From Flectonema sp. DT1601 (Eukaryota): a stretch of DNA of 64,000 nt. Numbering within the stretch: the first letter of the stretch is position 1; each line of letters begins with the position of its first letter. Of the stretch, positions 1,666 to 55,502 are shown in pieces. The notes under the pieces were generated by a model, which was given only the letters and a program-made list of their open reading frames with translations, ran no database searches and had not been told where the DNA came from. The stretch covers positions 496,001 through 560,000 of the forward strand of contig OZ025805.1 in the NCBI GenBank assembly GCA_964019425.1, written 5' to 3'. The translations under genes were made by a program, and so were the position numbers.

Positions 1666-3606
1666 ATGCAAATTTTTGTGACGTGTCCTGATTGGGGACT
1701 CCCCGCAGTGACAGTGACGGCTGGTGCTGATTCAGTTGTGAGCGACGTGTTGACGGCGGCGGCTGGGGAGTGGGATGTGGATCCGGAGGAAGTTGAACTC
1801 TCGTTTGCTGGTGATACCCTTTGCGAAACTGATCGGCTGGCAGATCATGGAGTGGTTGCAAACAGCGAGTTTGAAATGTGGAAGAAGCAGTTTAGGATAT
1901 TCGGTAAATGCTGGTTTGTTGATGATGCAAAACGGGAGAAGCTGCTTCTTTGGATGAGAGACCATATTACGGAGTACTTATGTCTGGACACTCCGACATT
2001 CACAGAAGATGGTTGCCTCACTGTTGACCGTGACCTGCTTCCTTCAGATGCCAAACAGGTTGCTTTCCGCAATTCAAATTCCAACAGCACAGCCATGTCA
2101 TCAGTTACCACTATCGGAGATAAGTTCTTATATGGCTGTTCCCAAATCACTTGGGTAACGAAACTCGGACAGCGCGCCTCCTCGTGGTGTTGCCTGGATG
2201 CACCTTGTGTGTAACTAGAGTGCTGACGTATTGTTGTTGCTGTGTATTCTTTCACCCCCGTTTTATTTTCCGGTAGCCTAACCTTTAAAAAAAAAGGACA
2301 ACATAGCAGAAGGTCAGGTGATCCGGCCCGGGATACTCAGGCACCCAGAGCTCACAGGGGCCACCGGGTTTTTATTTTTTCCTTAGTGGCATGATTTCCC
2401 TTTACCCCCATTTCCTTCAAACTTCCCCCGTTTAGTCTTTTCACGCATGGGGGGATTATAAGTTCAGGTCGCCTGAAATGTATTAACAGTATCAGCCCCG
2501 CGAGTTACTCGGGGAGCTCCCATGCAATGTGTGGAGAAAGAGGCCATCCCTCCCCCTACCTCTCTGCTTTACTACGTCGTTTTTTGTGTGTGGCATTTCT
2601 TTTCTTATATTCTTTTCTTTTCAATCTTGTTCCTTCACACGCAGTTGTTCGAGCGGTTGTGAACCACCTTGGGTCTCTTACGGTCTCCAAGCTACTGTTG
2701 TGCGAAGAAACAAATCTGTTGGTGCGGTGGCCTTCCGACGCCACCTGGACCGCAACTCGTTCACAGTGCCCTACCCGGTTCTCCACCGGACCGCCTGAGC
2801 GACGGGATCCATGGGATTCAAACCCCTAAACACTGGTTAATTTTGGCTGTTCCCAAATCACTTCTCTTGACCTTTCCAGTCTTCATAGTGTCACAACTAT
2901 TGGATATGAATTCTTGTATTTCTCACGACTCACTTCTGTTGACCTTTCTAGTCTTCGTAGTGTAACATCCATTGGTTGTAGTTTCTTGTCCTATTCCAAA
3001 ATCACTTCTCTTGACCTTTCAGGTCTAAGTAGTGTCACAAGTATTGGTGGTAGTTTCTTGTCAAACTGTAAACAAATTACTTCTCTTGACCTTTCAGGTC
3101 TTGGTAGTGTCATCACTATTGGAGATAGATTCTTGAGTTACTGTTCAGGAATCACTTCTGTGAACTTCTCCGGTCTTAGTAATGTCACCACTTTTGGCAA
3201 CTGGTTCATGTATTCCTGTTCAGGAATCACTACCCTTGACCTTGCAGGTCTTAGTAGTGTCACCAGTATTGGATTTTTGTTCTTGGAATCCTGTTTGCGT
3301 ATCACTTCTCTTGACCTTTCAGGTCTTAGCAGCATCACCACTATTGGGAGTTGTTTCTTGTCTTCCTGTTCGCGACTCACTTCTGTGAACTTCTCAGCTC
3401 TTAGTAATGTCACCACTATTGGGAGATGTTTCATGTCTTCCTGTTCAGGAATCACTACTCTTGACCTTTCAGATCTAAGTAGTGTCACCACTATTGGTGA
3501 TTGCTTTCTCAGTAAATGCTACTCTCTCACATCTGTGCAGCTGCCTGAAAGTAATAGCGCTCTCTTTGAGAAGTCTGTGAAAGCAGCGATTGATCATTCA
3601 GGATAA
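1666..3606 (+). pseudogene. Ubiquitin-like N-terminal domain + BspA-type LRR protein, interrupted by a 691-bp retroposon insertion
   Basis: N-terminus MQIFV...VELSFAGDTL...LADHGV is ubiquitin-like. It is followed by LRR units of the form VTTIGxxFLxxCSxITSLDLSGLSS. Removing 2153-2863 (insert plus one TSD) joins ORFs 1666.. and ..3606 into one 409-aa frame. Confidence 0.85.
2153..2843 (+). mobile_element. Non-autonomous non-LTR retroposon-like insertion, oligo-T end, 20-bp TSD
   Basis: TGGCTGTTCCCAAATCACTT is duplicated at 2133-2152 and 2844-2863. The equivalent site in the paralogue (about 4903-4922) is empty. The last 100 bp recur at 5072-5171. Confidence 0.85.
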
Positions 3607-3711
3607 AGTGGTGAATTGATTCTTATTGTTTTGTTTTTTGTTTAACTCATTACCATCGTGTACCTTCTGACTAAAATATGAAAACTTCTTTTCCCTTTGA
3701 GGGAATGTAAT

Positions 3712-3853
3712 TACATGTCGCATCCTCGTAGTATTCGATACCCAGATGTCACTTGTACGAGTTCTTTCTAACAGCAAGTTTAGCGTTTCGATGAAATAAT
3801 TCAAAAGAAGCAACGCAAGTTTTAGTGACGTGTCCTGATTGGGGACTCCCCGC
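3712..3853 (+). repeat. Degenerate fragment of the upstream/5' region of the Ubl-LRR gene
   Basis: Matches 'acatgtcgcat..cgtagtattcgatacccaga' (about 1495-1530) and 'gtgacgtgtcctgattggggactccccgc' (about 1678-1706). Confidence 0.7.
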
Positions 3854-4443
3854 GGCACTCGCTATGATGATGATGATATCACTTCATGTGGCTCAGATAG
3901 CTCATAATTCATCATAAATTGTGACTTCATATAAAGAAAGTGTTGTACAAGTGTTTTCATTAAGTATCAAAGTAGCACACGTAGACCTCCTTTAATTTTA
4001 TCAGTTTCGGTTCACAGTTTCGTGACACAAACAAAAAATCACAGTAGTTGTTATATTATTATTCTCTGTATAGTGCAAGATAAAGCCAATTCTTTTTTTG
4101 TAAATATAAACCCATTGTTGTTTGGTAGAGCGTAACTAACCTATTCCTTTATTTATTGTTGCGCCAAAACAAAACAAAAATGAAGTGCAATTTGCCGATT
4201 CCTTTTTACCCAGGTACTTTTACAAAGAATGTAGAACCGAATTGGTTAAACATTTCATTACAGGAATCTAACAACATGTCGCATTCTTCGTAGTATTCGA
4301 TACCCAGACATGATTCAATGTAGGGATCGTATTTATATAATTGTTGCCGCCTGGCGTTTGGAACACAACATCCACACATTCTTTACACAGCAGCCATATA
4401 TTAACACCCCACAGCAAATAGTAATTCAAAAAACTAACAAACA

Positions 4444-5326
4444 ATGCAAGTTTTTGTGACTTGTCCTGATTGGGGACCCCGCAGTGACAGTGACGGCTGG
4501 TGCTGATTCGGTTTGATCGACGTGTTGACGGCGGCGGCTGGGGAGTGGGATGTGGATCCGGAGGAAGTTGAACTCTCGTTTGATACCCTTTGCGAAACTG
4601 ATCGGCTGGCAGATCATGGAGTGGTTGCAAACAGCGAGTTTGAAATGGCGAAGAAGCAGTTTAGGATATTCGGTAAATGCTGGTTTGTTGATGATGCAAA
4701 ACGGGAGCAGCTGCTTCTTTGGATGAGAGACCACATTACGGAGTACTTATGTCTGGACACTCCGACATTCACAGAAGATGGTTGCCTCACAGTTGACCGT
4801 AACCTGCTTCCTTCAGATGCCAAACAGGTTGCTTTCCGCAATTCAAATTCCAACAGCACAGCCATGTCATCAGTTACCACTATCGGAGATAAGTTCTTAT
4901 ATGGCTGTTCCCAAATCACTTCTCTTGGCCTTTCAAGTCTTAGTAGTGTCACCACTATTGGTGATTATTTCTTGTCTTTCTGTTCCCAAATCACTTCTCT
5001 TGACCTTTCAGGTCTTAGTAGTGTCACCACAATTGGCGATTTATTCTTTTATTCCTGTTCAGGAGTCACTTCCTGGACCGCAACTCGTTCACAGTGCCCT
5101 ACCCGGTTCTCCACCGGACCGCCTGAGCGACGGGATCCATGGGATTCAAACCCCTAAACACTGGTTAATTTTTTTTTTCCTGTTCAGGAGTCACTTCTCT
5201 GGACCTTTCAGGTCTAAGTGGTGTTACGAGAATAGGGAATAATTTCCTCAGTGTATGCGATTCTCTTGTATCTGTCCAGCTTCCTGAAAGTAATGTCTTT
5301 GAGAAGCCTTTGAAGGCAGTGATTAG
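4444..5326 (+). pseudogene. Second Ubl-LRR paralogue: frameshifted, fewer LRRs, carries a truncated retroposon
   Basis: 4259-4922 is near-identical to 1481-2152, with small deletions (ggggacccc vs ggggactcccc) that break the frame after the ATG at 4444. Insertion at 5072-5176. The C-terminal cap remnant ...QLPESN is present. Confidence 0.85.
5072..5176 (+). mobile_element. 5'-truncated copy of the same retroposon, oligo-T tail, 20-bp TSD
   Basis: Identical to 2744-2843 plus a longer T tail. TTCCTGTTCAGGAGTCACTT is duplicated at 5052-5071 and 5177-5196. Confidence 0.88.
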
Positions 5327-5644
5327 CTGAACCATATCTATTGTTCTCTTATTGAGTTCCTGATCTCACCCCCACTTCCCCACTTCCCCACTTCCCAGAA
5401 CTGTACAGATACTTCTTTGTTGTGGATTTCTGACTTGTTTAATCTGAACTCTTAATTATAAACTATATTTCTTTATCAGGTGCATCCAGTGAACTAACCC
5501 CCCGAATCCCCAAATTGGACAGCACGTATGGGATTTTGTCGATACCAACTGTTGGTATTTTTACGCGTGAGTGACGCTAACTTAGTTTACTCCAAATTTC
5601 GAGTTGTTTTATATTTAATTACTTTATCAAGGTAACCTCAAAGA

Positions 5645-25720: not shown

Positions 25721-27644
25721 ATGAAAGGCCATAGATTACTAACTCGAAGGTTATCACCGACTGTTTGTAGATGGAGTAGAAGATGGAACACTTCAGTACC
25801 GGAAACTGAAACCGACTCAGAGAGGAAAGCAAGACTCAGAAGAGACAGTGGTGTAAAAGTCTATACAAAAGGTAAAGAAGAACTCAGAGTTGATGATTTG
25901 AGGAGGAGTTACAGAAAAGGTGAGACTTCAGGAGATCCAGACTTCCACGGGTCGGATGAACAAGTTAACAAATCAGGAGCAATCCTCGCTAGCATTGCTT
26001 TGATGTCATTGGGTTGTACTATGTTAGCTGTTCCTTTATATAAATTATACTGTTCTTCTGCCCCACAAGTTGCTGGTTCTGGGGCATCTACTAAGGCTAA
26101 GTTTGCTGCATCAGTGTTCGAAGATGACAGTAATAAACCTTCTATATCGAGTCTTATTCAGGTCCTCTTTAGAGGTTCCTGTGGTACAAAAGATAATCCT
26201 GTTTTGTTTGTTCCTTTACAAACCTCACTTGATTGTCTTATTGGAGAACCAACTCTCGCATTCTTTTCTGTTTATAATCAGACAAAGAAAACTCTTGTTG
26301 GTCTCTCAACTTATAACATCTCACCTCCTGAAGCTGCTCCTTTTTTTAATAAGATTCAATGCTTTTGTTTTGAAGAGCAGCGAATCAAACCTCACGAACT
26401 GATTGAGATGCCGGTATTCTTCTTTATTGATAAAGAGTTTCTTGACGTATGTTCTTTTTTTTTTTTTTTTTTCAATTTCTTATATTTTTAATAATTCGCT
26501 TTCAATCACAAAATGCACCTGAGAAAGAAGTATAAGTTAAGAATGAAAGTAAAGGCAAACACTCCACAACAAGGAAGTATCTACACTGTGAAGGGGTGCA
26601 GATTACTTCTGCGTAGGGGTTGTGTCAGGCCCGATTCGGTTCGACGGGACAGCGGCACTACCACCATGACGCGAGTTAAAGAAAGACCTCAACGCAAGTT
26701 CAACCTTCGCCCTCGTTCCATGTGAGACTTCCTCTCGAGAAGGAATCAATAAACACTCGTTAAGAATGTGTGAGCGAACACACATCTTTTTTCTAAAAGC
26801 ACCACAGACCGTAGTCAGATGGAAAGATGATCAGCCTTCTTGATACACTTGAGCGTCTGCCCGAGGACGTCAGGTTCAAGAACATTAATATCGGTTCACC
26901 TCGTCCTCACGCCGTTGGATGTTCTGTTCTTGTTGAGTTAGTTGATCTCGCAGTTGGAGTTCTAGTCTCTCTGCTGACTTTTCTTTTTGCATCTCGTCTT
27001 CCTTCTGTTAGAGTCTTTGTTGGAGTTGTACTTATCCAATCTGCTCCTTGAGCTTCTCTTCCTTTGGAGTCCCTGTTTCTGTTTGACTATCTCTCGGCAT
27101 TCAGTTGTTGGTATTCCACAGGTGGTAGGAAAAAAATTGGTTGATTTTTTTGTTGTGTAAGGCATCCAAGTGTACCAGCAGAAAAATACAGCTTGAAAAA
27201 GAAAATCAATCCTGAGCAGCGGTGGAATATACTACTGCGTGAAAAAATTTAGTGCGGTTTTTTTTCCACGCAGTCCAGTTGCAGTAACATATTCTTATTG
27301 TAGTGTGAACATCTCGCGATATCATTTTTCCCCATCAGATTCTGTTCCTACTTTTCTTACTCCAACTACGACTATTAGATAAGAGGCATCTTGGCCTAAA
27401 AAAAAAGTTAGCAGAGAGCACCTCTACCAAACCGCACTAATTTTTCCACGCAGTAATATTTCCAGTAGCAGTATATGAAAAAATTATCGCCGACAGCAAT
27501 TGTTATTTTTTATTTTTCTCTCGGGGCGGTGTTGGTGACAAATTACCTGACGAGAACTTTGGTATTTAAACATAACAACAACAGGACCCTGCTACGGCTC
27601 TTATAAACAGCGTCTTGTTGAACTACACTCTCTTTGTGATGTGA
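25721..27644 (+). CDS. COX11: Cytochrome c oxidase copper chaperone COX11; exons 25721-26446 and 27585-27644
   Basis: AVPLYKLYC TM segment, FNKIQCFCFEEQ copper motif and MPVFFFID. Exon 2 encodes DPATALINSVLLNYTLFVM*, which matches the COX11 C-terminus. Confidence 0.93.
26492..27562 (-). mobile_element. Internally deleted YR-retrotransposon derivative inside the COX11 intron, both termini retained
   Basis: The minus strand starts CCAAAGTTCTCGTCAGGTAATTTGTCACC (like the start of repeat A). It carries decayed RNase H coding (DINVLEPDVLG, MCVRSH..IPSREEVSHGTRAKVE) and ends with a B-like repeat and GAAAGCGAATTA. Confidence 0.85.
27235..27453. mobile_element. MITE-like element, about 26-bp TIRs, flanked by TA
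   Basis: TA-CTGCGTGAAAAAATTTAGTGCGGTTT ... AAACCGCACTAATTTTTCCACGCAG-TA. Confidence 0.65.
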
Positions 27645-28037: not shown

Positions 28038-28064
28038 CACAAAAAAAAAAAAAAAAAAAAGAAA

Positions 28065-31000
28065 ATGATACGAAAAGCGGTGCTTCTTATTATCGCAATC
28101 GTGAACTGCTTTGCTCTGTCTCCAATTGGTAGTCGCGGCACTAGTTCCGAAGAAGGAAATTCAATAGCACTTCATGGAGGAAACGCATATGTGTCTGGGA
28201 AGAGTCCTTTTTTTATAGATGTGAGTAACCCGAGTACTCTTTCATCGAAATCAAAGAATTCCATTCCACTTTCTGATACTTTTGACGTAACCCGTTCGAA
28301 TGGGTTTTTAATATTTGGTGACGACCAGTCAATCAAATCAGTGATCTCAACTCAAGTAAGTAAAACTAAAAGTGTTCCGTACGATTGTACGTCAGTTGCT
28401 TCTGATGGTAGCAGTGCGTTGTTTGCTTTGTTGTTGAAATGCGAGGTTAGGAGATACAGTGTTTCAACAAATGGACAGCTCTCTCAACAAAGTAACATCG
28501 TGATTAATGATAAGTTTGGTTACGACATCGCTGTTGATGGCAATGAGATATTCTTAGCATGTGAGACAGCTACTCACATGGTTGATTTCGGCAGCGGATC
28601 TCCGTCAAAAATCTGGACCATCACAACAGATAAGAAATCACAAGCTGTAGACGTCGATACCACAGGAATCTATGTCGGTGATGAAAAACAAGTTAAAATC
28701 TACAACAGACTGTCATCTGGTACACCTCCTCAAACTGCCATACTAAACGGCTTTGATGACATCAAAGACGTCTTAATCAGGGAGAGTATTCTTTTTGTTG
28801 CTAATAAAGGTTCCCCTGGTTTCAAAGCCTTTGAAGTTACCTCCATCTTCACTACTCCAACATTAATATTCACATTCAGCAGTTGTTCTGAAGGGTATGG
28901 GATAGAAGTGGATGAGAATTATGTTTATTTAATTTGTAAGGAAAATTTTTACATTTTTGATTTCGATGATTTTCGTGTACTGCGAACCCCAACAGCGATG
29001 CCGCCCACTGCGATTCCAACTGCAATCCCGACAGCTGTGCCAACAGCGATCCCGACTGCTGTACCGACTGCTGTTCCGACAGCTGTGCCAACGGCGGTTC
29101 CGACTGCTGTTCCGACAGCTGTGCCAACGGCGGTTCCAACTGCTGTACCGACAGCTGTGCCAACAGCGATACCGACAGCTGTCCCGACTGCTGTACCGAC
29201 TGCAGTGCCAACTGCTGTACCGACTGCTGTTCCGACAGCTGTGCCAACTGCGGTCCCGACTGCAGTGCCAACAGCGGTCCCAACTGCTGTGCCAACGGCG
29301 GTTCCGACTGCGGTCCCGACTGCAGTGCCAACTGCTGTACCGACAGCTGTGCCAACAGCGGTTCCGACTGCTGTTCCGACTGCTGTACCGACAGCGGTCC
29401 CAACTGCTGTACCGACAGCTGTGCCAACAGCGATTCCGACAGCTGTGCCAACAGCGGTTCCGACTGCTGTTCCGACTGCTGTACCGACAGCGGTCCCAAC
29501 TGCTGTACCGACAGCTGTGCCAACAGCGGTCCCGACTGCTGTACCGACTGCTGTTCCGACTGCAGTGCCAACAGCGGTCCCAACTGCTGTGCCAACGGCG
29601 GTTCCGACTGCTGTTCCGACTGCAGTGCCAACTGCTGTACCGACTGCTGTTCCGACAGCTGTGCCAACTGCGGTCCCGACTGCTGTACCGACAGCTGTGC
29701 CAACAGCGGTTCCGACTGCTGTTCCGACTGCAGTGCCAACTGCTGTTCCGACAGCGGTCCCAACTGCTGTACCGACAGCTGTGCCAACAGCGATACCGAC
29801 AGCTGTCCCGACTGCTGTTCCGACTGCTGTGCCAACGGCGGTTCCGACTGCTGTACCGACAGCTGTGCCAACTGCGGTCCCGACTGCAGTGCCAACTGCT
29901 GTACCGACTGCAGTGCCAACTGCTGTACCGACAGCTGTGCCAACAGCGGTTCCGACTGCTGTTCCGACAGCTGTGCCAACTGCGGTCCCGACTGCAGTGC
30001 CAACTGCTGTACCGACTGCAGTGCCAACTGCTGTACCGACAGCTGTGCCAACAGCGATACCGACAGCTGTCCCGACTGCTGTTCCGACTGCTGTGCCAAC
30101 GGCGGTTCCGACTGCTGTACCGACAGCTGTGCCAACTGCGGTCCCGACTGCAGTGCCAACTGCTGTACCGACTGCAGTGCCAACTGCTGTACCGACAGCT
30201 GTGCCAACTGCGGTCCCGACTGCAGTGCCAACTGCTGTACCGACTGCAGTGCCAACTGCTGTACCGACAGCTGTGCCAACAGCGGTTCCGACTGCTGTTC
30301 CGACAGCTGTGCCAACTGCGGTCCCGACTGCAGTGCCAACTGCTGTACCGACAGCTGTGCCAACAGCGGTCCCAACTGCTGTACCGACAGCTGTGCCAAC
30401 GGCGGTCCCGACTGCAGTGCCAACTGCTGTTCCGACAGCTGTGCCAACTGCGGTCCCGACTGCTGTACCGACAGCTGTGCCAACAGCGGTTCCGACTGCT
30501 GTACCGACAGCGATTCCGACTGCTGTTCCGACAGCTGTGCCAACAGCGGTCCCAACTGCTGTACCGACAGCTGTGCCAACGGCGGTCCCGACTGCTGTGC
30601 CAACAGCGATACCGACAGCTGTCCCGACTGCTGTACCGACTGCTCTGCCAACGGCGGTCCCGACTGCGATCCCGACTGCTGTACCGACAGCTGTGCCAAC
30701 TGCGATCCCGACTGCTGTGCCAACGGCGGTCCCAACTGCTGTACCGACAGCTGTTCCAACAGTTGTGCCAACGTCGATTCCAACTGCGTTACCGACAGCT
30801 GTGCCAACATCTCCACGGTCATCACCGACTGCGACTCCGCGGCCATCACCAACTCCACAGCCATCACCAACTCCACAGCCATCACTAACTGTTGCTACTC
30901 CACGACCACCAACCGTTGCGACTCCACAGCCATCACCAACTGCGACTTCAACTGCGACTCCACAGCCATCACCAACTGCGCCTCCAACTGCGACTCCACA

Positions 31001-34000
31001 GCCATCACCAACTGCGACTCCAACTGCGACTCCACAGCCATCACCAACTGCGCCTCCAACTGCGACTCCACGGCCATCACCAACTGTTGCGGCGCCTCCT
31101 ATTAGTCAGCCGCCTCCTGTTGTGATGCCTTCAGTACCTTCGACAGCATCACCTGCTCCTCAGACATTTGAAGTACTCGACTGTTATCCCAACCCTTGTG
31201 AAAATAATGGAATCTGTGAAGATCAACCAACTGGTTTTAGTTGTAAATGTCAACAAGGATACGGAGGAACAATTTGTCAAGAACGTCCACTGACTGTGGG
31301 GTCATTTGGTATTGCTAGAGTTGGAAGGAAGGTGTTCGTTCCGTCATCAGAGTTTGAGATCCTTCTCGAAGACGATGATGTCTCTTGTGATTCGAGTGCT
31401 TCTATTTTAATTATAAACAACAAGACGGATATGGAAACCCGTCCTGGAGTTTGGTATCGCATCGCCAAGCGACAATCACTTTCAACTACTCGCACGGCAT
31501 GCGGTTCTGTTGTTATTATTTGGACTGAAACAAAACTTTTATTCAACACAGACGTCCCTGGTAGTTGCAATGTAATAATCCCAAATTGGAACATATCAGA
31601 ACGAGACAACATCCACTACGTCGTATTAGTCGATGGTAGGATGTGGTATTCCGGATTGAATCGAAATATAGTAATCGCTCCGTTATCAGCAGGAATCCAT
31701 TTGATCACTCTGACGGTGGAATTTAAGTCAAATGAAGACTTACCAACAAACCAATACGCGATACAAGTATGGGGAACTGCTTCAGCAGTTAAGATCCCAA
31801 TGTTGAATTCACTTGGTGACGATTCGATCTATTCTCTTACTGAGATGGTATTCCAGGCAACTCAATCATCATTTCCTGGTGAGAGAACCACAGTTATCAA
31901 AGAAGGAGCTGCTTTACTTCAAAATATCGTAACCGCGACTACAGTTCTGTCTCCTTTCAGTATTGATACACTTTTAGATAGCGTCACATCACTTCTCACT
32001 GTTACTTCAACAGCTGATCCGTCTCTGTCTTTAGAAGTCTTACAGTCATCTGGTAAAATATCATCACGAGCGTTGAATGAAAAAAAATTTCTCAAGTTCG
32101 ATTCCGGAGGAGATTTGATTGTGAACGTTGCTGTTGATACTTCTGAAGTGTCGATTGCTGGAGCTGCGACTGCTGACTTCGGTGAGATAACGATAATGAC
32201 TTCGAAACCGATTAGTGTTGGTGTTGAAGTTGTTAAATCAATTAGATATCCAGGAAGTGAAAACAACACTGGTCTGGTGACTACTATTCAGATGATAGGA
32301 GCCTTACACACGACTGTTAGGATTACTATTCCTGTTCCGAGAGTCCTTCTCAGACCAACTCCTTGTAGGATGACTTGGAAGAGTTTTGATCCAATCACTG
32401 AGATGTGGATGACACCATCTCATCCTGAAGTTAAATTCAATCGAAGAACTGTTTTTAATTACAACAACAACTCAACTGAAATGACATCCGACAGATGTTT
32501 GCCTTCGACATCTGAAAGAGGTATTTCAAACCTTGAAACTGAAACAGACAACACCATCACTATCGATGTGGTGTTTAAATCATCAGAACAGAAGACGATT
32601 GGAATCTTTACTGACGGGTCTTTATTACCTTCTGAGGATGTTACGTCTTCTGATCAAAACTTTGATATCGATGATGAACCAGACCTCACGAATACCTTTC
32701 CAATTGCTGTAGTACTTTGTGTTCTTATTATCGCTCAAATCAGTTCTGTTTTAGTACATAATTGTTATGTCAGTCGGATTGAAAATCTTCACAGCAATGA
32801 CGAGTATGAACATGAGAACACATCGAGTGTACCAATCGCATGGGCTGATGATGTCAGCGTCAGAAGAAGTTTTCGAAGCTCAATTAGTGTGACGACCCCT
32901 CAGGGGAGTATGACGACACCTCAGGGAGGAGGATGTTCTATTGGTCGTTCACCTGATTCGAGAACTTCAGGTTTGAGAGGATCGCCTTCGATGAGGAGAT
33001 CACAAAATCGATTATTTGAAATGGGAAACAACGCGATGACGTTACCAAACAGTGAGAGTGATATCGAATCGACTATCGCAGGTAGTCCAGCTACTGATCA
33101 TCACCTCCTCGCATCGTTAAGGAATCCTTCCATTAGATCATCAGCTGCATCGATGGGAAGAATAGCAGTCGATATGCTCTCAGACGACGTTTCAGAAACT
33201 TATTCAGAAACTCAAATTGGGAATTCCGCTGTCAAAATCACAACATTAGTCCGAGAATGTCATTGCCGTATTGATTCCATACTCCAGTGGATGTGGTCTT
33301 ATCACTTGTTGCTTTCGTTGTTTATTTCTTCATCAAAGATGTCAATCTTAAACTACAACAGACCAAAAAGAATGGCCGCCTTCACAGTTTTTGTTAACTT
33401 CGCAATTTTCAGTCAGATCGGAGTAATTGAATTGCGAGGAGAAGACGTGAGTTTGGAATTTTCAATTTTCAGTAGCATTGGAAGTGTGTTTGTTGGGATG
33501 ACTTTGGCTGGTTTTTGCCAAGTTGCTTTTCAAAGTAAAATAACAGATTCGAAGCAAAACGATCTTCTTCCGGTTAAGAAGATCGCTTTCACGACGGTTC
33601 ACATCAAATCATATTCCGGTATCGATTGTCAGAGTATGAGGGAAATAGTTATTTCATCATCCTCAACAAATGAAAAAACACTAAAATCCAACGCAAACAC
33701 ATCCAACAAACTGCAACCTGTTTCTCTACCAGTGATGATAGACTCTGACGGCATTCGTAGTACTCCGGTTAGAATACAGCTAAAGGATGAATCTCAAGCC
33801 ACCACTCACGAAGTTGATTTGAATATGGATTTATTAGTTAGGAATTACGGAGCTACGACTCCCGCTGGAGGTCATTTTAGTATCCTGCGGTGGTTTCATT
33901 TGAAAAAAACTGTGGAATCGAATTCCAAGGCGACCCCTGCCATTTTATTGGCCATCGACTTCAACTATCACGTTAATGATATTTCTCCTCGAAATAACAA

Positions 34001-34856
34001 CAAGTTCGATTCCCTCAGAGGCAATTTTTCTGATCGGTTTAGATCTGAAAAAACATTAGCTGTTTGTGTTTGGCTTGTTGGTATTTTGTTGGGAATTGGT
34101 CTTTCAACTGCTGTGTCGCTGTACTCTTATGGTGGAGGTGTAATGATGTTGTTTGTTGTCGTAATGTGTAATTTCATTTTAGCTTCTGATCGTTTTTTTA
34201 GTGAATTAGTTCCGCTGTTTGTTTGCGGATTGCCTGCTGGAGTGCTTGCGATTACTTTGTTTCACTGGTATCAATTATCAACCAGCTGGACATGTGCTCA
34301 CGCTGTATCATCCTGGGCTGTGGGTATGTTGTTGTGGACAACGTCATCTCACAAAACTATAATAAGAATGATCCTTTCCGTAATATTTGTGTTGCTTTGG
34401 GGGACCCAATTGGCTCTTGTATTGCATTTTCACGATTCGCTTAAAAAGAATAGCAACGTGCCATCAGTTGGCAAGTTCGATTCCGTGTGGATGCCCATAT
34501 TATTGTCAATTCTTGGGATAATATTGACATTGAGATATTGGATGTCAATCTGTTCAGGGAGGCTACCTCTAGAAATACCTTCTTTCATCTATAAGTTTGG
34601 TTGGTTTGTTTGTTTTGCTGGGTTTGTTATTGTTGCTGTGGCAGCTTTGATTCTCCCATACTGGTCTAATGCTCAATGTGATGGATTACTGCGTGGGATG
34701 GGTTTGGTTATGGTTGTCACACTAGTGGTGGCTGAACCTCTCAAACAAATTGTTTTCTATTCCAATTCCCCAGCTGGTGATCACAATTCTGTTGCGTCTG
34801 CTTTGGGTGTCTTCTCCGAGGTAATCGGGTTGTCTTACGTGGTTCTGAATTTTTAA
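28065..34856 (+). CDS. Giant surface membrane protein: signal peptide, beta-propeller-like N-terminus, about 150 PTAV repeats, EGF domain, multi-pass C-terminal region
   Basis: 2263-aa uninterrupted ORF. EGF motif CYPNPCENNGICEDQPTGFSCKCQQGYGGTIC. Many C-terminal hydrophobic helices. Confidence 0.88.
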   Translation: MIRKAVLLIIAIVNCFALSPIGSRGTSSEEGNSIALHGGNAYVSGKSPFFIDVSNPSTLSSKSKNSIPLSDTFDVTRSNGFLIFGDDQSIKSVISTQVSKTKSVPYDCTSVASDGSSALFALLLKCEVRRYSVSTNGQLSQQSNIVINDKFGYDIAVDGNEIFLACETATHMVDFGSGSPSKIWTITTDKKSQAVDVDTTGIYVGDEKQVKIYNRLSSGTPPQTAILNGFDDIKDVLIRESILFVANKGSPGFKAFEVTSIFTTPTLIFTFSSCSEGYGIEVDENYVYLICKENFYIFDFDDFRVLRTPTAMPPTAIPTAIPTAVPTAIPTAVPTAVPTAVPTAVPTAVPTAVPTAVPTAVPTAVPTAIPTAVPTAVPTAVPTAVPTAVPTAVPTAVPTAVPTAVPTAVPTAVPTAVPTAVPTAVPTAVPTAVPTAVPTAVPTAVPTAVPTAVPTAIPTAVPTAVPTAVPTAVPTAVPTAVPTAVPTAVPTAVPTAVPTAVPTAVPTAVPTAVPTAVPTAVPTAVPTAVPTAVPTAVPTAVPTAVPTAVPTAVPTAVPTAVPTAVPTAVPTAVPTAIPTAVPTAVPTAVPTAVPTAVPTAVPTAVPTAVPTAVPTAVPTAVPTAVPTAVPTAVPTAVPTAVPTAVPTAVPTAVPTAVPTAVPTAIPTAVPTAVPTAVPTAVPTAVPTAVPTAVPTAVPTAVPTAVPTAVPTAVPTAVPTAVPTAVPTAVPTAVPTAVPTAVPTAVPTAVPTAVPTAVPTAVPTAVPTAVPTAVPTAVPTAVPTAVPTAVPTAVPTAVPTAVPTAVPTAVPTAVPTAIPTAVPTAVPTAVPTAVPTAVPTAVPTAVPTAIPTAVPTAVPTALPTAVPTAIPTAVPTAVPTAIPTAVPTAVPTAVPTAVPTVVPTSIPTALPTAVPTSPRSSPTATPRPSPTPQPSPTPQPSLTVATPRPPTVATPQPSPTATSTATPQPSPTAPPTATPQPSPTATPTATPQPSPTAPPTATPRPSPTVAAPPISQPPPVVMPSVPSTASPAPQTFEVLDCYPNPCENNGICEDQPTGFSCKCQQGYGGTICQERPLTVGSFGIARVGRKVFVPSSEFEILLEDDDVSCDSSASILIINNKTDMETRPGVWYRIAKRQSLSTTRTACGSVVIIWTETKLLFNTDVPGSCNVIIPNWNISERDNIHYVVLVDGRMWYSGLNRNIVIAPLSAGIHLITLTVEFKSNEDLPTNQYAIQVWGTASAVKIPMLNSLGDDSIYSLTEMVFQATQSSFPGERTTVIKEGAALLQNIVTATTVLSPFSIDTLLDSVTSLLTVTSTADPSLSLEVLQSSGKISSRALNEKKFLKFDSGGDLIVNVAVDTSEVSIAGAATADFGEITIMTSKPISVGVEVVKSIRYPGSENNTGLVTTIQMIGALHTTVRITIPVPRVLLRPTPCRMTWKSFDPITEMWMTPSHPEVKFNRRTVFNYNNNSTEMTSDRCLPSTSERGISNLETETDNTITIDVVFKSSEQKTIGIFTDGSLLPSEDVTSSDQNFDIDDEPDLTNTFPIAVVLCVLIIAQISSVLVHNCYVSRIENLHSNDEYEHENTSSVPIAWADDVSVRRSFRSSISVTTPQGSMTTPQGGGCSIGRSPDSRTSGLRGSPSMRRSQNRLFEMGNNAMTLPNSESDIESTIAGSPATDHHLLASLRNPSIRSSAASMGRIAVDMLSDDVSETYSETQIGNSAVKITTLVRECHCRIDSILQWMWSYHLLLSLFISSSKMSILNYNRPKRMAAFTVFVNFAIFSQIGVIELRGEDVSLEFSIFSSIGSVFVGMTLAGFCQVAFQSKITDSKQNDLLPVKKIAFTTVHIKSYSGIDCQSMREIVISSSSTNEKTLKSNANTSNKLQPVSLPVMIDSDGIRSTPVRIQLKDESQATTHEVDLNMDLLVRNYGATTPAGGHFSILRWFHLKKTVESNSKATPAILLAIDFNYHVNDISPRNNNKFDSLRGNFSDRFRSEKTLAVCVWLVGILLGIGLSTAVSLYSYGGGVMMLFVVVMCNFILASDRFFSELVPLFVCGLPAGVLAITLFHWYQLSTSWTCAHAVSSWAVGMLLWTTSSHKTIIRMILSVIFVLLWGTQLALVLHFHDSLKKNSNVPSVGKFDSVWMPILLSILGIILTLRYWMSICSGRLPLEIPSFIYKFGWFVCFAGFVIVAVAALILPYWSNAQCDGLLRGMGLVMVVTLVVAEPLKQIVFYSNSPAGDHNSVASALGVFSEVIGLSYVVLNF
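28988..31085 (+). repeat. Coding tandem repeat: 12-bp PTAV units followed by PQPSPTA(T/P) units
   Basis: CCNACNGCNGTN repeats with synonymous variation, and a higher-order 264-nt duplication (29787 vs 30051). Confidence 0.97.
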
Positions 34857-45149: not shown

Positions 45150-48006
45150 ATGTCTCACCCAAACATGGATGAACACTTTGCGGGTTTAGCGGAGAGTGAA
45201 AAGCTGGAGACCCGCATTGCACGATTGCAGGAGGAGCTGAATTGAAGTTTACAATACGCAGAAAAGAGAGGGACTCGGGTGAACGTGTAAAAGCTGAGAT
45301 CCGCAAGGAAATTGTTGAAACCAACATCGTCAAAGCTGAGAATCAGAAAAATTTCTGGAAATTGAAGGAAGAGAATCAGAAAAATATCCGGAAATTGGAA
45401 GAAGAGGAGATGCAGGTCAGGTTCGGAAAAGGTATTTTGGTATCACTGCAAAAGAGAGGGGTTTCTACCTGAGTCGGCTGGAAACTGCAATCGCCGATGC
45501 TAAAGCTGAGAAAACACGACTCGCACTCGTTGGATCACAAGTATGCTTTTTACTTTTTTGAATTGGGGAAAAGGGGTAGGGGCTCGGAAAGGTGGTGTGA
45601 CAAAGTGAACCGCCATTGTTTTATATGTCAGGTTTATGACTCTAACAATATTAATAAGATACCGAAAAGGTGTTTTATTAAAGATGGCTCCAAAATCATG
45701 GAAAAAACCATAGACTTTGAGCACAAGACCAATGGAAACAAGGCATGCTTTAACGCCTCTCAAAAGATCAAACATTATCAGATTGATCCAAAAAAAGAAC
45801 ACTTTAAGAAAGCTCAAGTTTTAACCCGAGTATTTCATGGAAGGATAAATTTTTCAAGAAATGGGAATAAAAAGGTTACGATGGATAATTCGAATATTTC
45901 AAAGAATGTCACCAATAAACCCAGCCAGGTTGCGAACTAGTAACAGCATGAGGAATGTTTTTTTTATATACATGCATGATAACAAAGTAACTGCATCCTA
46001 GTAACTTAGGTTGTGACTTGTTTTCTACTTTACCATGAGTTTTATTGAAAAGCTGTTTTACTTACCGTTTAGTTAACCTTCCCAACACTAAAACAGGGTG
46101 GTCACAAAGTGGAATATTTGTTAGAGTGTGATAGTGAAGAAGGAAATGCGATCTTGAAGAGATGGGAACACCTAAAGTTCGATCCTTACAATCAGGAGTT
46201 GATTTGTCGCGAAAGTGCAAAAGAAATAATCCTTGACTACGCTAAGAAGGTGGTGCAGAAGGACGAGAAATATTGGACTCAAGACGATAAATCAAAGTTG
46301 CTGACTTCGTATGGAGTGAAAGGTACGGGCAAAACAGCAGTCATGCGAGCAATGGTCGGATTCGATGGGAAGCCAGGGTGGGTTCAGGCAGCTGACCCAA
46401 ATGCAAGGGCCGTGACGTCTTCATTCAATGAATGTGGTGGCAAGGTTGATATGTTCGGAAATGATTGCGAGAAACTAGGTTTACATCGGACAGACATTGC
46501 ATTCGGTAGGCACATCTTAAGGTACAATGGAATGTGTGAAGAGGATGTTCAAAGGGTTGGAAGCTTCAAAACTGCTGTGTTCCTCCTGCGGAAAAAGCTT
46601 GGGCAAACAATCCCAGGCACCCTGGTCATTGGTATTGATGAACTCGCAATGATTGAGGGAGAAGCTGCCAAAGTGGTGAGCAGTCTTATGCAGCAGCAGG
46701 ATTATTCCATTGGATATCCCGATGCATACGGAGGTGCGGTCATTTTTATCTTGTCCGCATTAACTGAATCTTTCGCTTCGAAAGTGCAAACTGCTTCAGG
46801 TCGCCCTATCCTGACAAACATTCCCCTCCATAACTTGCCACAGGCTGAAGCGTTCGATCTCCTCCCTGCTGACATCAGAAGTGCTGCAAAGAAAGATGGA
46901 CGGATTCAAAAGCTGATTAACCAATGTGGTGGGAATCCACGGGCTTTGTTTGAAGGTGTCATGAACTCAGAGACTACCTTGTAAAGGGGGACCAAGAGGT
47001 GTATGATAGCGATATTGCCAAAGCCCGATCGACAATTCTTAAGGACTGCAAGATAATAAGTACAATTCAGGGTCACACTCTGATGGACATTGTTTCTACT
47101 TGGTTCGCGGTTCAAGAACCCACTGAAGAATGGAGGGATACCATGCGTGGTGCAGGATTCCTCCAACCTGTTCAGGGTAAGGATTCCAATGAGATATTTT
47201 TCCCGCTGATGCTTGCTGAGTGGTCAAAAAGAAAGCAGTTGGGTTCTCTCATGTCGCACCACATTGCAGGCTGCTATGACAGCGACGATCAGATAATGAC
47301 GGGACAAGAGAAGAGGGTCGAGCATCTGTTAATGCACTATGAGATAGTTCGAAAGGTGGCATACCATCATCTGAAAAAGAAGCCACCGATCGGTGCATTC
47401 TTCAAGCACTCAACTGTCAGTCCTGCAACAAAAGCTACCGATCGTAAATGCGACCTGCTTAGGGCTGAAGATACGTTCCTGATCGAATTTAATGATTTAT
47501 CTACAAACTTAGTCAGTCATGTTTCGAAGTTTAAGGAGCTTACTGACGGTGATTGGAAGTCATTCAGCTATGGGCACACTCTCTACTCCGATCTCTCCAA
47601 CGAAAAAGGAATTGAATACATCACACCCCACTTTCGTCTGATCAATGGAAAGTCAGTCCTCACAGCAGAAGTGTGCCAGATCAAATATACACAGTCGGCT
47701 GATTGGCCCAATTGGCAAGAGAAGCTCAAGACATCACCTGGGGTGAAAGCACTCAACAAGAAGAAGATCCCCTGGTTTGCTGTGTACTATGTTAGCCATT
47801 CCCCTATTCCCCAGACATACAAGACCGACTGTATTCATTTTCCGAAAGACGCCCTGGACAAGTTCACTGCTCCGTTAGGGATACTGCACCTTGAGAAGGA
47901 AACACTGAAATCCCCCCTTTCTGGGGCAATGTTGAGACATCGCCCATGGGTGTCACCTGCTAAGCTACCTTCTCGGATCCCGCGAGTTCTTTTGAAAATG
48001 TTCTAA
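45150..48006 (+). pseudogene. Crinkler/RHS-like P-loop NTPase + restriction-endonuclease-fold gene, frameshifted
   Basis: Walker A GVKGTGKT and Walker B LVIGIDE lie in 46109-46984. A one-base frame change near 46970 continues into 46999-48006 with KGIEYI...EVCQIKYT (PD-(D/E)xK-like). Whether the frameshifted coiled-coil 5' exon from 45150 belongs to this gene is tentative. Confidence 0.6.
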
Positions 48007-50572: not shown

Positions 50573-50584
50573 TAATTAGCCTTC

Positions 50585-50843
50585 TCAAAATTCCATTTAG
50601 GTAATTTGCCACCGAAACTGAGCACCAAACAAAAACCGCCGTCAGCGGGTTTTGAACCCTCGACCGCCATTCTCGCAGACCGGCGTTCTATCAATTGAGC
50701 TATGTAGCCACATAATCGACGTTTCTTTTATTTCTATAAGTCAATGTCTCTATTAGTTTTCTGACGATATCAAATATTTCTATCCCTTTATCAGTTCTCA
50801 CACCCCTGTCTTCATCACAAGAAAACTTATATTTAAATTAAGT
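50585..50843 (+). repeat. Split direct repeat A1 (259 bp)
   Basis: Identical by eye to 55226-55484. Confidence 0.95.
50636..50709 (-). ncRNA. tRNA-like (degenerate) Pol III-type unit within repeat A1
   Basis: GGCTACA TA GCTC AATTGATA GAAC G CCGGT CTGCGAG AATGG CGGTC GAGGG TTCAAAA CCCGC TGACGGC GG, then TTTTT. Canonical tRNA spacing with A- and B-box-like motifs, but the stems are mismatched. Confidence 0.7.
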
Positions 50844-50849
50844 TAAATA

Positions 50850-52106
50850 ATGACTCGTGTAAATTTTGAGTTCCCTGAGTTCCTAGTGGAGATTTGGAAG
50901 GCACGAATGGGTGAGGAACCGCCAAAGAAGTTGGATAATATTAACTTGGATGAGCTGATTGCATGCATCCCCTTTAGCATCGATCTAAGTACATTGAGAT
51001 CGGACAAGGAGACGAGGAGGTTGATCCAAGGCACACTGGCTATGTGTCTTGGGATCTCAAGCGACGCAGCCAAGACACTTTCGATGAATAAGTGTCTAGT
51101 AATACTGGGGGTTCTATCAAGGAGCCGCTTGCAGTTGGTCAACCAGAGCGCCGCCCGGATGAGCGAGCGGATATCCAAGGGGGGGTCGGATAGGTTGGTG
51201 ACACACGACGAGGCGGAGGATGCGATGGGATCGCTGCAGCAGGGCACGGACACGCTCCGAAGCGACACCAAGCAAGGATTCGACTCGTTGAGAAACGAAT
51301 GTCAGAAGGAATCCCAATCGGTGAGGAGAAGGGTTGGGGAGGCCGCCGAGAAAGCTGAGAACATCGGGGGCATGTGGGAAGCATTCAAAGAGCAACAGGT
51401 TCTACAACAGCAACAACAAGATAACATCATCCAGCAGCTCACACAGCAACAACAAGATCAGCAGGACCAGAATACTGCATTGTTCCAGAGCATCAGTCAA
51501 CAACAACAGGTCCATCAGGAACAACAGGCAGCCGTGATACAAGGTATCATGCAGGAATTAGCAGGTCTGAAGAAGAGGTCTACCACAACTCAGCAAGGGC
51601 CAGTACCTCAAGCACCAAAGACGGAAGAAGAAGAAGCAACACAGGAGGTGACCGACCCATCTGCAGCCAGAGATGTAAAAAGATGGGCAGCAGTAATGAG
51701 TTCGGGAAGGACCGAGGCCCTGGTACACGGGATCAGAGAGAGGTATGTTAACAGCCTCGAATACAAAGTTGGGGGAAGCCAACTTCTCAGTTATTTCAAG
51801 CAATTGAAAAACTTTATACTCGGGTTCGAATATGTAGTAGCGTGGGAAGAAAACCCCCACTTCGTAGAGCTAGGCAACGATTTGTTGGAGCAGCTGCGGA
51901 TTCAGCATTACTTCTGCAAGGATGGGACGAAGAGATCCGAGCTGGAGATGATAATGAAAGTGGCATCGGAAGACCCGTTGGAGAAGGCAAACGCCATAGC
52001 TAAGAGGAACAAACATGTGAAGCTGCAGCAACCAAAATGGAAAGGAGGGAAGGCGTCTGTTTCCACATACCCAGCATCGGGAAACGGGAGAGGGTTCGCG
52101 AAGTGA
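50850..52106 (+). CDS. Gag-like ORF1 of the YR retrotransposon
   Basis: First ORF, 6 nt after A1. Coiled-coil/Gln-rich with a basic C-terminus. A homologous fragment lies at 55790-56470. No CCHC knuckle seen. Confidence 0.8.
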   Translation: MTRVNFEFPEFLVEIWKARMGEEPPKKLDNINLDELIACIPFSIDLSTLRSDKETRRLIQGTLAMCLGISSDAAKTLSMNKCLVILGVLSRSRLQLVNQSAARMSERISKGGSDRLVTHDEAEDAMGSLQQGTDTLRSDTKQGFDSLRNECQKESQSVRRRVGEAAEKAENIGGMWEAFKEQQVLQQQQQDNIIQQLTQQQQDQQDQNTALFQSISQQQQVHQEQQAAVIQGIMQELAGLKKRSTTTQQGPVPQAPKTEEEEATQEVTDPSAARDVKRWAAVMSSGRTEALVHGIRERYVNSLEYKVGGSQLLSYFKQLKNFILGFEYVVAWEENPHFVELGNDLLEQLRIQHYFCKDGTKRSELEMIMKVASEDPLEKANAIAKRNKHVKLQQPKWKGGKASVSTYPASGNGRGFAK

Positions 52107-55100
52107 CCAGCCGACCGGACCCTGCAAGTAACAACAGTACTCCCAAGACGAAGGTTAGAGTACAGGAATATGCAAGTATTAGAAACACTCCCATTACCAA
52201 GGTTGAAGTATTTAAGGAAACCAGCAAGACTTATGCAGAAGCGCTCAAAACAGGTATTGAAGGACGGCCGACTACGAACAAGGTTAAGAAGATCCATAAG
52301 TTCGATCGTTCGAGGCCCGGACAACAATATAAAATCCGCAGTCCGAGGATCCCCCAGCGGAAGGGAGATGGAAGCAAATTCAGACAGAGAAACGGGAGAG
52401 ATAAATTCCACACCAATCACAGTCACAACGGATACAATGCCCTCAGAAGAATTAGGAAAAAACATAGTTGGAAGAATTCTGCTGAACATGATGGAGGGAT
52501 GCCCCGAGGGGGCAAAGAAGCGGCATGCGGAGGATTCCGTTACATACATAGAAGCGACGGAAAGACTTCAAGAAACACTAGAGAAGATGTGGGCCTCAAA
52601 GACAACAGCAAGCAGGCGGAATCTGTGGAGAAGATTTCGGGCCTGGGCAAGGGAAAAGGAGAAACCAGCAAACGCAAGCTCGGCTGTTCTGTTCGTGATG
52701 GCGACAGGTGTGGCAGTGCAGGGGCTTCTCTCTTATGCAAAGAGTCTATCTGCAGTGATGGGGAGAATCGGAATAGAAAACGGACCTCTGTTGAGCTTAG
52801 CTGCAGCACTGAGGGCGAACGGAGCGGCAATACCACTAGAACAGGCAACGCCAATGACAAGTTTCGACCTGGTGGATTGGGCAAGGGGGCAAGAATTAAA
52901 GACCCACTTGGCAATGCTAGTGTGCTGGAAGACTGCATCAAGATGGGGCGAGACCGCAGCGCTCTCAAGGGACCAGTTCATCTCTGTAAGTCCGTCAGAG
53001 ATCATTATCGATTGGTTCCGCACGCCGAAGGGAAGGAGGGCAAACCCTTACTCGCCAAGCAGATGGACGGTGATAAAGGGGAATCACACAGAAGAGATAA
53101 AGATCTTGCTGGATGCGATGGGGGAGTTCAAAAAACTACACCCGTGGGACACGTCAAAATTAGTGAAAACGTTCCAGCAAGACGGCAGGATGAAAAGATA
53201 CACCGCCCACTCAATAAAAAGGGGTGCGATAAGTCATCTGTTGGAAGTTCTGGCATCCGACCAAGAGCAGCAAGGACTCACAGAAGGGCTGATAAGCAGG
53301 CTGGCCAAGCATGCAGGAGTGTCGGCTCTTTCGGACACCACGCTGAGGTACGGGGGGAACCCAATTGCAATGGCGAGGGCGTTAAAGACAGGGGATGTCA
53401 CCTGTTTCCTGTAGTTGATAGATCAAAAAATGCGAGCGAACGGGATGTGATGCGGAGCGTAGCAGCTCAGTTCACACACAGAACAAAGAGCACGCGCATT
53501 CCCATAACGAAGGAGGAGATATCTTCACCACTACATGTGGCCCCTACACCTAAGATGGATGTTTCAGCTGTGAGGGGGAGGATGCTGCCATCGGTCCTGA
53601 AGAGGTTTGATTATGTTTGGGACCTCACCTTCTTTCCTAAGGATTCTTCTGTCAATGCACGGCTCTCGAGGAGGGCAACTTCGAAGTTGGCAGGGAAACA
53701 TGCAAGAGAATTGGTTGAGTGTGGTATTGCAGTGCCGAGTGATTCTGTACCGCTGTCTCGGAATGTACCATTTACAGTGTATGAGGAGAGGGAGACGGGG
53801 AACAGACAGCGGTTCATCCTCTGGACAAAAGAGCAGAACGAACTGATCTCGTCTGGGGGATATGAACCATTCGTTCCACTGCAGCACATTTCTTGTTACC
53901 TGGATGCTGTACATTCGGAGGTGGCATCCTGCAGGGACTTCAAGACTGGATTCTACCAGGTCTGCATACCTGAGGGGTCAACTTCACTCTTCAGTTTCTC
54001 TGATTCAGCTGGGAAGGTTTACTCTTTGACTCGACTTCCGATGGGTCATGTGTGTGCCCCAGAACTGATGAACACCATCGCTGCAGTAGTTGCTGGTGAC
54101 CCGCTGTTCGTTAAGAAAGAATTTGCGGAGGAGGAAGTTGGGATTCACTGGTGGATTGATAACATTAGGTTATTTGGTCCCAAGGAGAAGGTTAAATGCG
54201 CAGCTGAGAGGATGGACTCCTTTGCCAGAATGGCAAACATCACATGGAAACCAAGTGATACTGTGGATCTCTCTCCGAAGTATGAGTTCTTGGGGGTCAC
54301 CTTTGATCACCATACAGACAGGGTGAGCTTGGGGACCAAGATTGGGAGAAAAATCAAGAACACCAACCTTGATTCATTGACTGCATCGGAGTTGGAGTCC
54401 TTAGGAGGTCGCCTGTTGCATGCCAGCTCCATTGTTGGAGTTCCACCTGGGAAGTACTGGTTTAGCTTGAAGTATCTTCGCAGAGTCACAAATTACTTGA
54501 ACAAGGGAACCCTACAAGTACAGCAGGTACTAAAATTGCCCCGTTCAGTAAGGAAGGAATTAGAAATGTGGATCGGTGCTGTGCAGAAGGAGAGAATAAT
54601 TATGCCTGAGCAGAAAGAGGGGAGGACTGCCGAAGTGTTTGTAGATGCCTCATTGCAGGGATGGGGAGGTGTCATTGTTTGGAAAACAGGTGAGTTGGAA
54701 ATTCTTGGTGCGGCATGGCCTGCTGGTGAAGACCGACATATAAATATCCTTGAAGCGGACGCTCTTGGGAAGACACTCAAAGGAATTGCAAAGGCCGACC
54801 ACCTTTCCATCTGGGTTGACAACACTACAGTTTGTGGTGCTTTTCGGAAGAAGATGTGTGTTCGCTCACACAGTCTCAACAGGTGTTTGATAACTGCGAT
54901 TGAATGCCTTTTAGTTTTGAAATGTTCCTACTCCCTTGCCTGGGTAAGCACGAAGCTAAACCCAGCAGACATTCCTTCTCGAGAGGAAGTCTCACACGGA
55001 ACGAGAGCGAAGGTTGAACAAGCGTTGGGGTCGTTCTTTAACTCGCGTGGTGGTGGTGGTGCCGGTGTCCCGTCGAATCGAAACGGCCCGGTACAACCCC

Positions 55101-55144: not shown

Positions 55145-55225
55145 TCTCAGACTTGTTAACTGCATGTTCATTCAATTAAGTATACTTCTCTTTCCCAGGT
55201 GCATACAGTATAGGAAGGCTAATTA
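55061..55225 (+). repeat. Split direct repeat B1 (165 bp)
   Basis: Matches 55503-55667 with one mismatch seen (55220 T vs 55662 C). Confidence 0.95.
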
Positions 55226-55484: not shown

Positions 55485-55502
55485 CCCACCCACCCTTCCC
55501 CC

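Follow-up and report, generated by a model that had tools for sequence, protein, structure and literature searches.

The window analysed here is a stretch of 64,000 nucleotides (64 kb) of contig OZ025805.1 from Flectonema sp. DT1601 (assembly GCA_964019425.1, positions 496,001 to 560,000). Near its start lie two paralogous genes for proteins with a ubiquitin-like head and BspA-type leucine-rich repeats (Ubl-LRR genes), each interrupted within an LRR unit by a copy of the same short element. The features at the locus, all on the + strand and in window coordinates, are these:

1666..2152, +, Ubl-LRR gene 1, 5' part: ubiquitin-like head, linker and first BspA-type LRR unit (exact protein P0131)
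2133..2152, +, left target-site duplication of copy 1 (exact repeat)
2153..2843, +, full-length non-autonomous element of 691 bp, no protein family found
2841..2843, +, T tail of copy 1
2844..2863, +, right target-site duplication of copy 1 (exact repeat)
2864..3606, +, Ubl-LRR gene 1, 3' part: nine more LRR units in an open frame (LRR_5, E 1.8e-23)
4445..5330, +, Ubl-LRR gene 2, broken upstream of the LRRs by 2-, 1- and 6-nt deletions
4902..4921, +, empty site, identical to the copy-1 duplication
5052..5071, +, left target-site duplication of copy 2, in the third LRR unit (exact repeat)
5072..5176, +, 5'-truncated copy of 105 bp with an 8-T tail at 5169-5176
5177..5196, +, right target-site duplication of copy 2 (exact repeat)
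5199..5205, +, 7-nt microhomology with the copy-2 truncation point (5073-5079)

The frame of gene 1 reads into the element and stops at TAA 2212-2214, and the resulting truncated protein is present in the protein set of the European Nucleotide Archive (ENA). The small deletions of gene 2 predate its insertion, the gene having already been broken upstream of the LRRs. In three paralogues the ubiquitin-like head matched Rad60-SLD below the cutoff (E 0.0008-0.004), and the closest named relative of the host gene, in Flectonema neradi, was 38% identical. At 3686-3853 the upstream and 5' region of the Ubl-LRR genes is present a third time, as a partial copy with 84-90% identity.

Both target-site duplications are exact and 20 bp at maximum, and both run from the third base of a Tyr codon through the first base of the Ser codon in C-S-x-I/V-T-S. 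The last 100 nt of copy 1 are identical to 5072-5171 (100% identity, E 9e-48), and copy 2 consists of these 100 nt with a longer T run, eight T where copy 1 has three. A third copy was not found in the window, where the next-best BLAST match was T-rich (E 0.036). The site occupied by copy 1 is unoccupied in gene 2, and each copy takes up one of the 13 in-register LRR sites in the 64 kb, ten in gene 1 and three in gene 2. Six-frame translation revealed no coding capacity for a reverse transcriptase (RT) or endonuclease in the 691-bp element, and its longest plus-strand open reading frame (ORF), of 144 aa, had no Pfam match. Flanking duplications on both copies, a 3' homopolymer tail of variable length and 5'-truncated copies characterise it as a non-autonomous retroposon; in two further proteins of the family, P0143 and P0147, the insertion likewise begins inside the element.

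The left edges of both duplications are uncertain by 1-2 nt, because the duplications begin with T beside a T tail. At its truncation point copy 2 has a 7-nt match to the target just past the duplication (5073-5079 and 5199-5205), and such a match occurred at 4 of 671 tested offsets of the 691-nt element, all of them one site, which is the truncation point itself. The 5' junction of copy 2 was thus probably set by microhomology, and the end of its duplication is therefore not independent evidence of the cut site; a duplication of about 29 bp with a 1-nt slip would fit copy 2 equally well. The original prediction had described one element in two Ubl-LRR paralogues, as copies of 691 and 105 bp in different LRR units, with the first site empty in the second gene, and in all of this it was right, including the coordinates. 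Its 20-bp duplications are indeed exact at both copies, with the uncertainty just given for the left edges and for the right edge of copy 2, and the 691-bp copy, correct in extent, can now be described as a full-length, ribozyme-headed unit.

The wider LRR family was surveyed in 72 ENA proteins, treated as paralogues of one assembly and gathered by N-terminal-domain searches among proteins of 281-2000 aa (34 matches) and 88-280 aa (24 matches), by expansion of all multi-member clusters and by the addition of two fusions to the ORF1 described below; the F. neradi match was excluded. Classes were assigned by script, except that among intact C-termini 33 were recognised by pattern and 3 by eye. 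Junctions with the short element at one register were found in 17 of the 72 proteins, on 12 contigs, told apart by length, and with the window's own protein included. Sixteen of them close with C-x-x-I/L-T and then W/G-VTKLG, which is encoded by the first bases of the element, while the 17th has this in a shifted frame. They occur in LRR units ranging from the first to roughly the ninth, and the 16 in-frame junctions have 15 distinct target peptides. Four more proteins, on four contigs, have junctions with a longer element at the identical register, which brings the recognisable 5' junctions at this register to 21 of 23, in different LRR units and on many contigs. The remainder of the 72 comprised 2 proteins with off-register short-element junctions, 2 that stop right after the Thr and were left unassigned, 36 with an intact C-terminus and 11 others. 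The ends of P0022, P0023, P0025, P0133, P0142, P0146, P0151, P0158 and P0163 were not scored as insertions; P0022, P0133, P0142 and P0151 break at or near the target register, in unassigned sequence or at a stop, and are possibly further truncated insertions. A short-element insertion truncates one paralogue within 6-20 codons. Since 23 of the 72 proteins, about a third, are cut by elements, the elements shape the size of the family. The targeting of LRR-coding repeats with truncation of the genes, as originally proposed, is thus borne out, while the accompanying suggestion that the genes are diversified finds no support, every case being a truncation.

Further junctions came from a public sequencing run (X1), the one matching run in a sequencing-run search that listed no RNA run; its depth was not used as copy number. 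On one X1 contig an internal-type LRR unit is joined at the same base to a diverged element 5' end, and on another an element 3' end is joined in register to a different LRR flank. Hence both X1 contigs that reach an end of the element, in this element-centred set, run into LRR units, one of them unlike the window's. A 34-bp X1 match at 2289-2322 was treated as unrelated.

Such a distribution could in principle have arisen from few insertions that spread by gene duplication, unequal crossing-over or conversion, with no repeated targeting. The LRR units are 70-85% alike in sequence and five junction genes share one contig, as this would have it, and conversion among units would ignore a tree of the N-terminal domain. 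Each duplication in the window, however, matches the sequence of its own unit on both sides, and this unit-specificity argues against conversion from one event and sustains the earlier claim of independent insertions. The number of distinct target peptides, and the presence of two element subfamilies, the long element and a second species at the same site, also speak for repeated insertion. On an N-terminal-domain tree of 59 rows (17 junction, 3 long, 2 off-register and 36 intact proteins plus an outgroup; 14 of the 72 proteins were not included), the 17 junction proteins needed 12 changes, at least 6 of them forced by well-supported branches, and a single clade of the 17 was rejected (approximately unbiased test, p-AU 2.6e-81). 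We regard spread by duplication or conversion as highly improbable.

The 5' end of the element is predicted to fold as a self-cleaving ribozyme like that of hepatitis delta virus (HDV), with the following parts:

2153..2225, +, predicted HDV-like self-cleaving ribozyme (descriptor search)
2153-2159/2189-2195, +, P1
2170-2175/2220-2225, +, P2
2176-2178/2186-2188, +, P3, with L3 at 2179-2185
2196-2197, +, P1.1 (GG)
about 2198-2212, +, P4 hairpin
2215, +, candidate catalytic C

The fold is a nested double pseudoknot (P1/P2/P3/P1.1) that starts at the first G of the element. Run over both strands of the window, a descriptor of it matched only here, starting at element base 1, and it had no match in 5000 dinucleotide shuffles of the element (0/5000) or in 40 shuffles of the window. 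The core at 2177-2187 (P3/L3) is identical over 11 nt to the most conserved ribozyme motif of R2, as quoted in PMC5035012. Two substitutions in X1 preserve pairing, T-G to T-A at 2192 and C-G to T-G at 2170, and one of these creates the stop found in 13 of the 16 junction proteins. ARAGORN made no call, hence no tRNA-derived head was assigned. A ribozyme predicted at this position makes RNA-based spread, assisted by a longer element that shares the site, the likely mode of propagation.

A different origin for the interruption, namely an intron-like or DNA-based insert excised from the RNA, might be read from a GT at 2155 and from polypyrimidine-AG sequences at 2275, 2434 and 2643. Yet the 3' end lacks an AG, a join of 2154 to 2644 would bring a stop in six codons, and no terminal inverted repeats were seen by eye, whereas the variable T tails, the 5' truncation and the ribozyme head all match target-primed reverse transcription. 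This origin is barely credible. Rescue of the gene via splicing or via the internal polypyrimidine-AG sites was also considered and was not supported. The AGs that follow pyrimidine-rich tracts in the element (2275, 2434, 2643 and 2652) may be trans-splice acceptors or polyadenylation signals for the truncated host mRNA.

The longer element at the same site was recognised from proteins. Three LRR genes on three contigs (P0021, P0035 and P0040) run in frame, from the long element's first base, into one ORF, here ORF1, of about 980 aa (977 aa in P0035 and 995 aa in P0040; P0021 is frameshifted earlier), and a fourth copy, P0154, is read in another frame. Intersection of the two frames fixes the first 75 bases of the long element except three, and the 5' end so deduced has the same ribozyme core and the same J4/2 spacing as the 691-bp element, with strands of P1 (6 bp) and P2 (6 bp) that differ yet pair. 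ORF1 combines a Q-rich coiled region with two predicted RRM-like domains (predicted local distance difference test, pLDDT, 82.5 for the model). A coiled region with an RRM is typical of the ORF1 proteins of long interspersed nuclear elements (LINEs). No Pfam domain for 2A, apurinic/apyrimidinic endonuclease (APE), RT or RNase H was found in this first ORF, and no DxExNPGP was seen by eye in its sequences. P0078, a distant ORF1 relative, has OTU, APE, RT and zf-RVT domains (E 1.5e-6; 1.6e-9 by profile). We infer that the partner is probably an APE-type LINE. Of the full-length partner to be looked for according to the original prediction, a longer element with an ORF1 at the same site was seen, RT and endonuclease being encountered only in the distant relative. 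A sequence search of the PDB with P0078 gave no matches, ORF1 had no relative in JGI metagenomes and IMG/VR, the element's 3' motif had no match in metagenome_contigs, and the one match in the ESM Atlas, at 0.76, was uninformative.

Besides P0078, P0080 and P0049 are distant ORF1 relatives, and an OTU-like protease domain is present in P0078 (Pfam) and P0080 (by eye). An L-x-G-G motif precedes APE in P0078 and a similar motif follows ORF1 in P0049; processing of a deubiquitinase type is possible.

The ORF1 search gave 74 matches, and two sister families are of particular relevance. P0043, from the F. neradi transcriptome, is 41% identical to ORF1 and is fused to a different BspA-type LRR at the same register; its records are isoforms of one locus, a chimeric F. 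neradi transcript. Family C, with 45% identity to ORF1 and 10 cluster members, is fused to cathepsin genes at C-N-G-G-L in 3 members and to an unnamed ORF at W-Q-G-E-L in 4, all on one contig, and 3 have no visible 5' end. The four family-C elements on one contig, P0117, P0118, P0122 and P0123, are fused to an unnamed leader of 33-34 residues without a Pfam match and may mark a second target or a tandem array. In the three long families the junction peptides are compatible with the ribozyme core at one common offset (7 of 614 windows as background), and N-x-x-A-H-x-x-N-G-N is found 60-73 residues past the junction, ahead of the first Met of ORF1 at 93-290. The form N-x-x-A/V-H-x-x-N/H-G-N was present in 7 of 7 ORF1 proteins, which had been preselected by a looser pattern, and the strict form in none of 14000 shuffles; the looser pattern was seen in only 6 of the 74 search matches. 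Polyproteins of toti-like viruses are cleaved at NKxMHxxNGN (PMC7968656), and the motif here resembles that of infectious myonecrosis virus (IMNV) and Omono River virus (OmRV) described there, with the difference that it lies in the ORF1 of a retroposon, as a putative cleavage site.

These families bear on how strict the targeting is. The retroposon could be loosely specific and abundant throughout the genome, with the LRR genes a tolerated hot spot that offers a preferred cut motif and most copies elsewhere, as with ingi/RIME and L1Tc/NARTc in the retrotransposon hot spot (RHS) genes, and this is compatible with target-primed reverse transcription. The survey was selected for LRR proteins, site specificity of L1Tc/NARTc is only relative (PMC5814959), family C is found in two different genes, and 4 of the 6 ORF1-cluster members show no 5' end. 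The 64 kb nevertheless hold no copy outside LRR units, both element ends in X1 fall within LRR units and none is left loose at a terminus, and the 41%-identical family uses the same register in F. neradi. We consider a loose hot spot unlikely.

The 691-bp unit is, with good confidence, a non-autonomous retroposon without long terminal repeats, inserted at a fixed LRR position, released by its predicted ribozyme and mobilised by the likely site-specific endonuclease and the RT of the longer same-site element. From the duplications, tails, empty site, fixed register and ribozyme-shaped 5' end that are observed, we infer the later steps. Polycistronic read-through from an LRR gene would transcribe the element, and the ribozyme would cut ahead of G1, which is the proposed reason that the 17 junctions start at the same base. 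The partner's endonuclease, probably of APE type, would nick the bottom strand close to the Tyr codon and, some 20 nt further downstream, the top strand, target-primed reverse transcription would begin at the U-rich 3' end, and an incomplete cDNA would be joined via microhomology, as in copy 2. Because all units of this large multigene family contain the target, there are many sites, and an insertion truncates one paralogue only.

Several points weigh against this account. Only two duplications are visible in full, one of them with an ambiguous right edge. The survey, entered through LRR proteins, was selected for LRR flanks and other flanks were invisible to it; the cases unbiased for flank are the two window copies, the two X1 junctions and the two fusions found through ORF1. 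Two of the 23 recognisable junctions are off-register short-element junctions, the 17 may include gene duplicates or haplotigs, and X1, with a depth of about 2, may derive from the very source of the window. As for the ribozyme, its descriptor was composed on the general HDV topology after the fold had been seen by eye, and allowed one extra base in J4/2; C2215 is followed by TAGA, which makes J4/2 one base longer than the consensus. The subfamily-2 copies readable at this place (the X1 record and P0143) have different deletions that both remove the candidate catalytic C, so that some copies are dead or the assignment of the C is wrong. Rfam recognised no ribozyme family, returning three weak unrelated matches. 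The link between the short and the long element rests on the shared site, the GG start and the ribozyme core, the partner being known from proteins alone. The ORF1 model had no Foldseek match at E 0.001, and the best comparison of its RRM-like folds (Z 7.7, rmsd 4.1, 72 aligned) is at Z below 8, which may reflect a common arrangement.

More tentatively, and with less than even confidence, a diplonemid LINE clade may specialise on coding multigene families, with a cut phase that puts ORF1 in the host frame and a host-ORF1 fusion that is severed at the NGN motif. Its targets would be BspA-type LRR genes in two species, cathepsins and one unnamed ORF. An uncleaved co-transcript would use the host cap and start codon and be translated as a host-ORF1 fusion, the viral-type NGN motif some 60-73 residues into the element would sever it, and the ribozyme-cleaved RNA would serve as the template for insertion. 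In-frame targeting would thereby solve transcription and translation at once. The frame is kept in 4 of 4 family-target pairs observed as fusions, a number to be read knowing that protein searches reveal in-frame fusions only, and the position of the motif ahead of the first Met and the chimeric F. neradi transcript are as such a fusion predicts. The model is weakened by P0042, in which the ribozyme core is out of frame with ORF1 and no host part is visible, and by distant relatives that carry the NGN motif without a host fusion. R2-like, ribozyme-linked initiation without an AUG would explain the same data.

What these elements target is one codon position within coding repeats, which two diplonemid species have in common. 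Another sister family, from the same set of proteins, is directed at cathepsin genes, and these related elements with different targets constitute a natural set for the study of endonuclease retargeting. If in-frame fusion and NGN cleavage are true, they show how ORF1 can be translated from a LINE that lacks a promoter and starts with a ribozyme, in a cell that uses trans-splicing, and they provide a cellular setting for testing a poorly understood viral cleavage motif.

Other features were observed elsewhere in the window. An element at 50582-55790 appears by eye to be DIRS/Ngaro/TATE-like, with overlapping ORFs at 50847-52106, 52004-55144 (weak RT match, E 0.001) and 52107-53414 (recombinase-like by eye, no Pfam match), split repeats (50582-50843 = 55223-55484; 55061-55225 = 55503-55667) and an inverted pair at 55533-55790. 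A tRNA-like sequence was seen by eye at 55270-55350, where ARAGORN made no call. In the region 26448-26891, the Cox11 ORF appears to break at a GT near 26448, and the sequence past the break carries, in inverted orientation, a decayed relative (74-79%) of the 3' end of the element at 50-55 kb. A 2272-aa ORF at 28038-34856 has a long P-T-A-V repeat, an EGF-like stretch and several hydrophobic segments, and the overlapping ORFs of 303 and 350 aa at 46073-48006, the first with a weak ATPase_2 match (E 0.0014), are possibly one frameshifted gene.

In reviews, the targets of site-specific LINEs are rRNA, tRNA and snRNA genes, spliced-leader exons, microsatellites, telomeres and transposons (PMC4640811, PMC5035012). 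The genome paper of Diplonema papillatum (PMC10161547) has LINE, SLACS and TATE gene models only, and the supplements searched gave no matches for ribozyme, BspA or site-specific. In the literature surveyed, neither this diplonemid family nor the targeting of coding repeats by codon register was described, and NGN motifs were not reported from retroposons; subscription literature, Repbase and bioRxiv supplements may hold a precedent. The original statement that no case had been described was too strong, however, as the coding RHS family contains a hot spot into which ingi/RIME insert, giving rise to truncated pseudogenes (PMC7563717), and REP elements of Tetrahymena insert in LRR introns (PMC6564038).

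With ingi/RIME of Trypanosoma brucei and L1Tc/NARTc of T. cruzi the present family shares a Euglenozoan LINE with a short non-autonomous partner, a ribozyme at base 1 (predicted here, HDV-like in L1Tc/ingi-type elements; PMC4035085, PMC5814959), a fixed site in a coding multigene family and an in-frame N-terminal cleavage signal, putative here and 2A in L1Tc. It differs in having a T tail and not poly-A, a 20-bp duplication, a separate ORF1 of about 980 aa without APE or RT where the ingi/L1Tc clade has a single ORF with 2A, APE, RT and RNase H, an NGN-type motif and not DxExNPGP, and a target in every LRR unit; insertions in RHS give nonsense or frameshift, whereas ORF1 here is in the frame of the host gene. 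The Tetrahymena REP elements are likewise LINEs and strongly associated with an extensive LRR gene family (76% of Tt.REPs colocalise with LRR repeat units), but they prefer LRR-gene introns in the germline nucleus and leave the genes functional, while the insertions here fall at one codon position and truncate (PMC6564038). R2 and its non-autonomous derivatives are similar in site specificity for a multicopy gene, in the co-transcription and ribozyme processing proposed here, with the identical 11-nt core, and in variable 5' junctions formed via microhomology (PMC3774820), HDV-like ribozymes being known to free both R2 and L1Tc/ingi from host co-transcripts (PMC3774820, PMC4035085, PMC5814959). 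R2 is unlike the present family in its restriction-like endonuclease (RLE), its one ORF and its rRNA target. The target-specific APE LINEs of the Tx1 and R1 clades (PMC4640811) resemble it in that it is likely a two-ORF, APE-type group with families retargeted to different repeats, and their listed targets exclude coding repeats. The CRE/SLACS clade is set apart by its target, the spliced-leader RNA genes, the target here being LRR coding sequence. The family works like ingi/RIME and R2, yet it is neither a member of ingi, by its T tail and separate ORF1, nor of the SLACS type, by its target.

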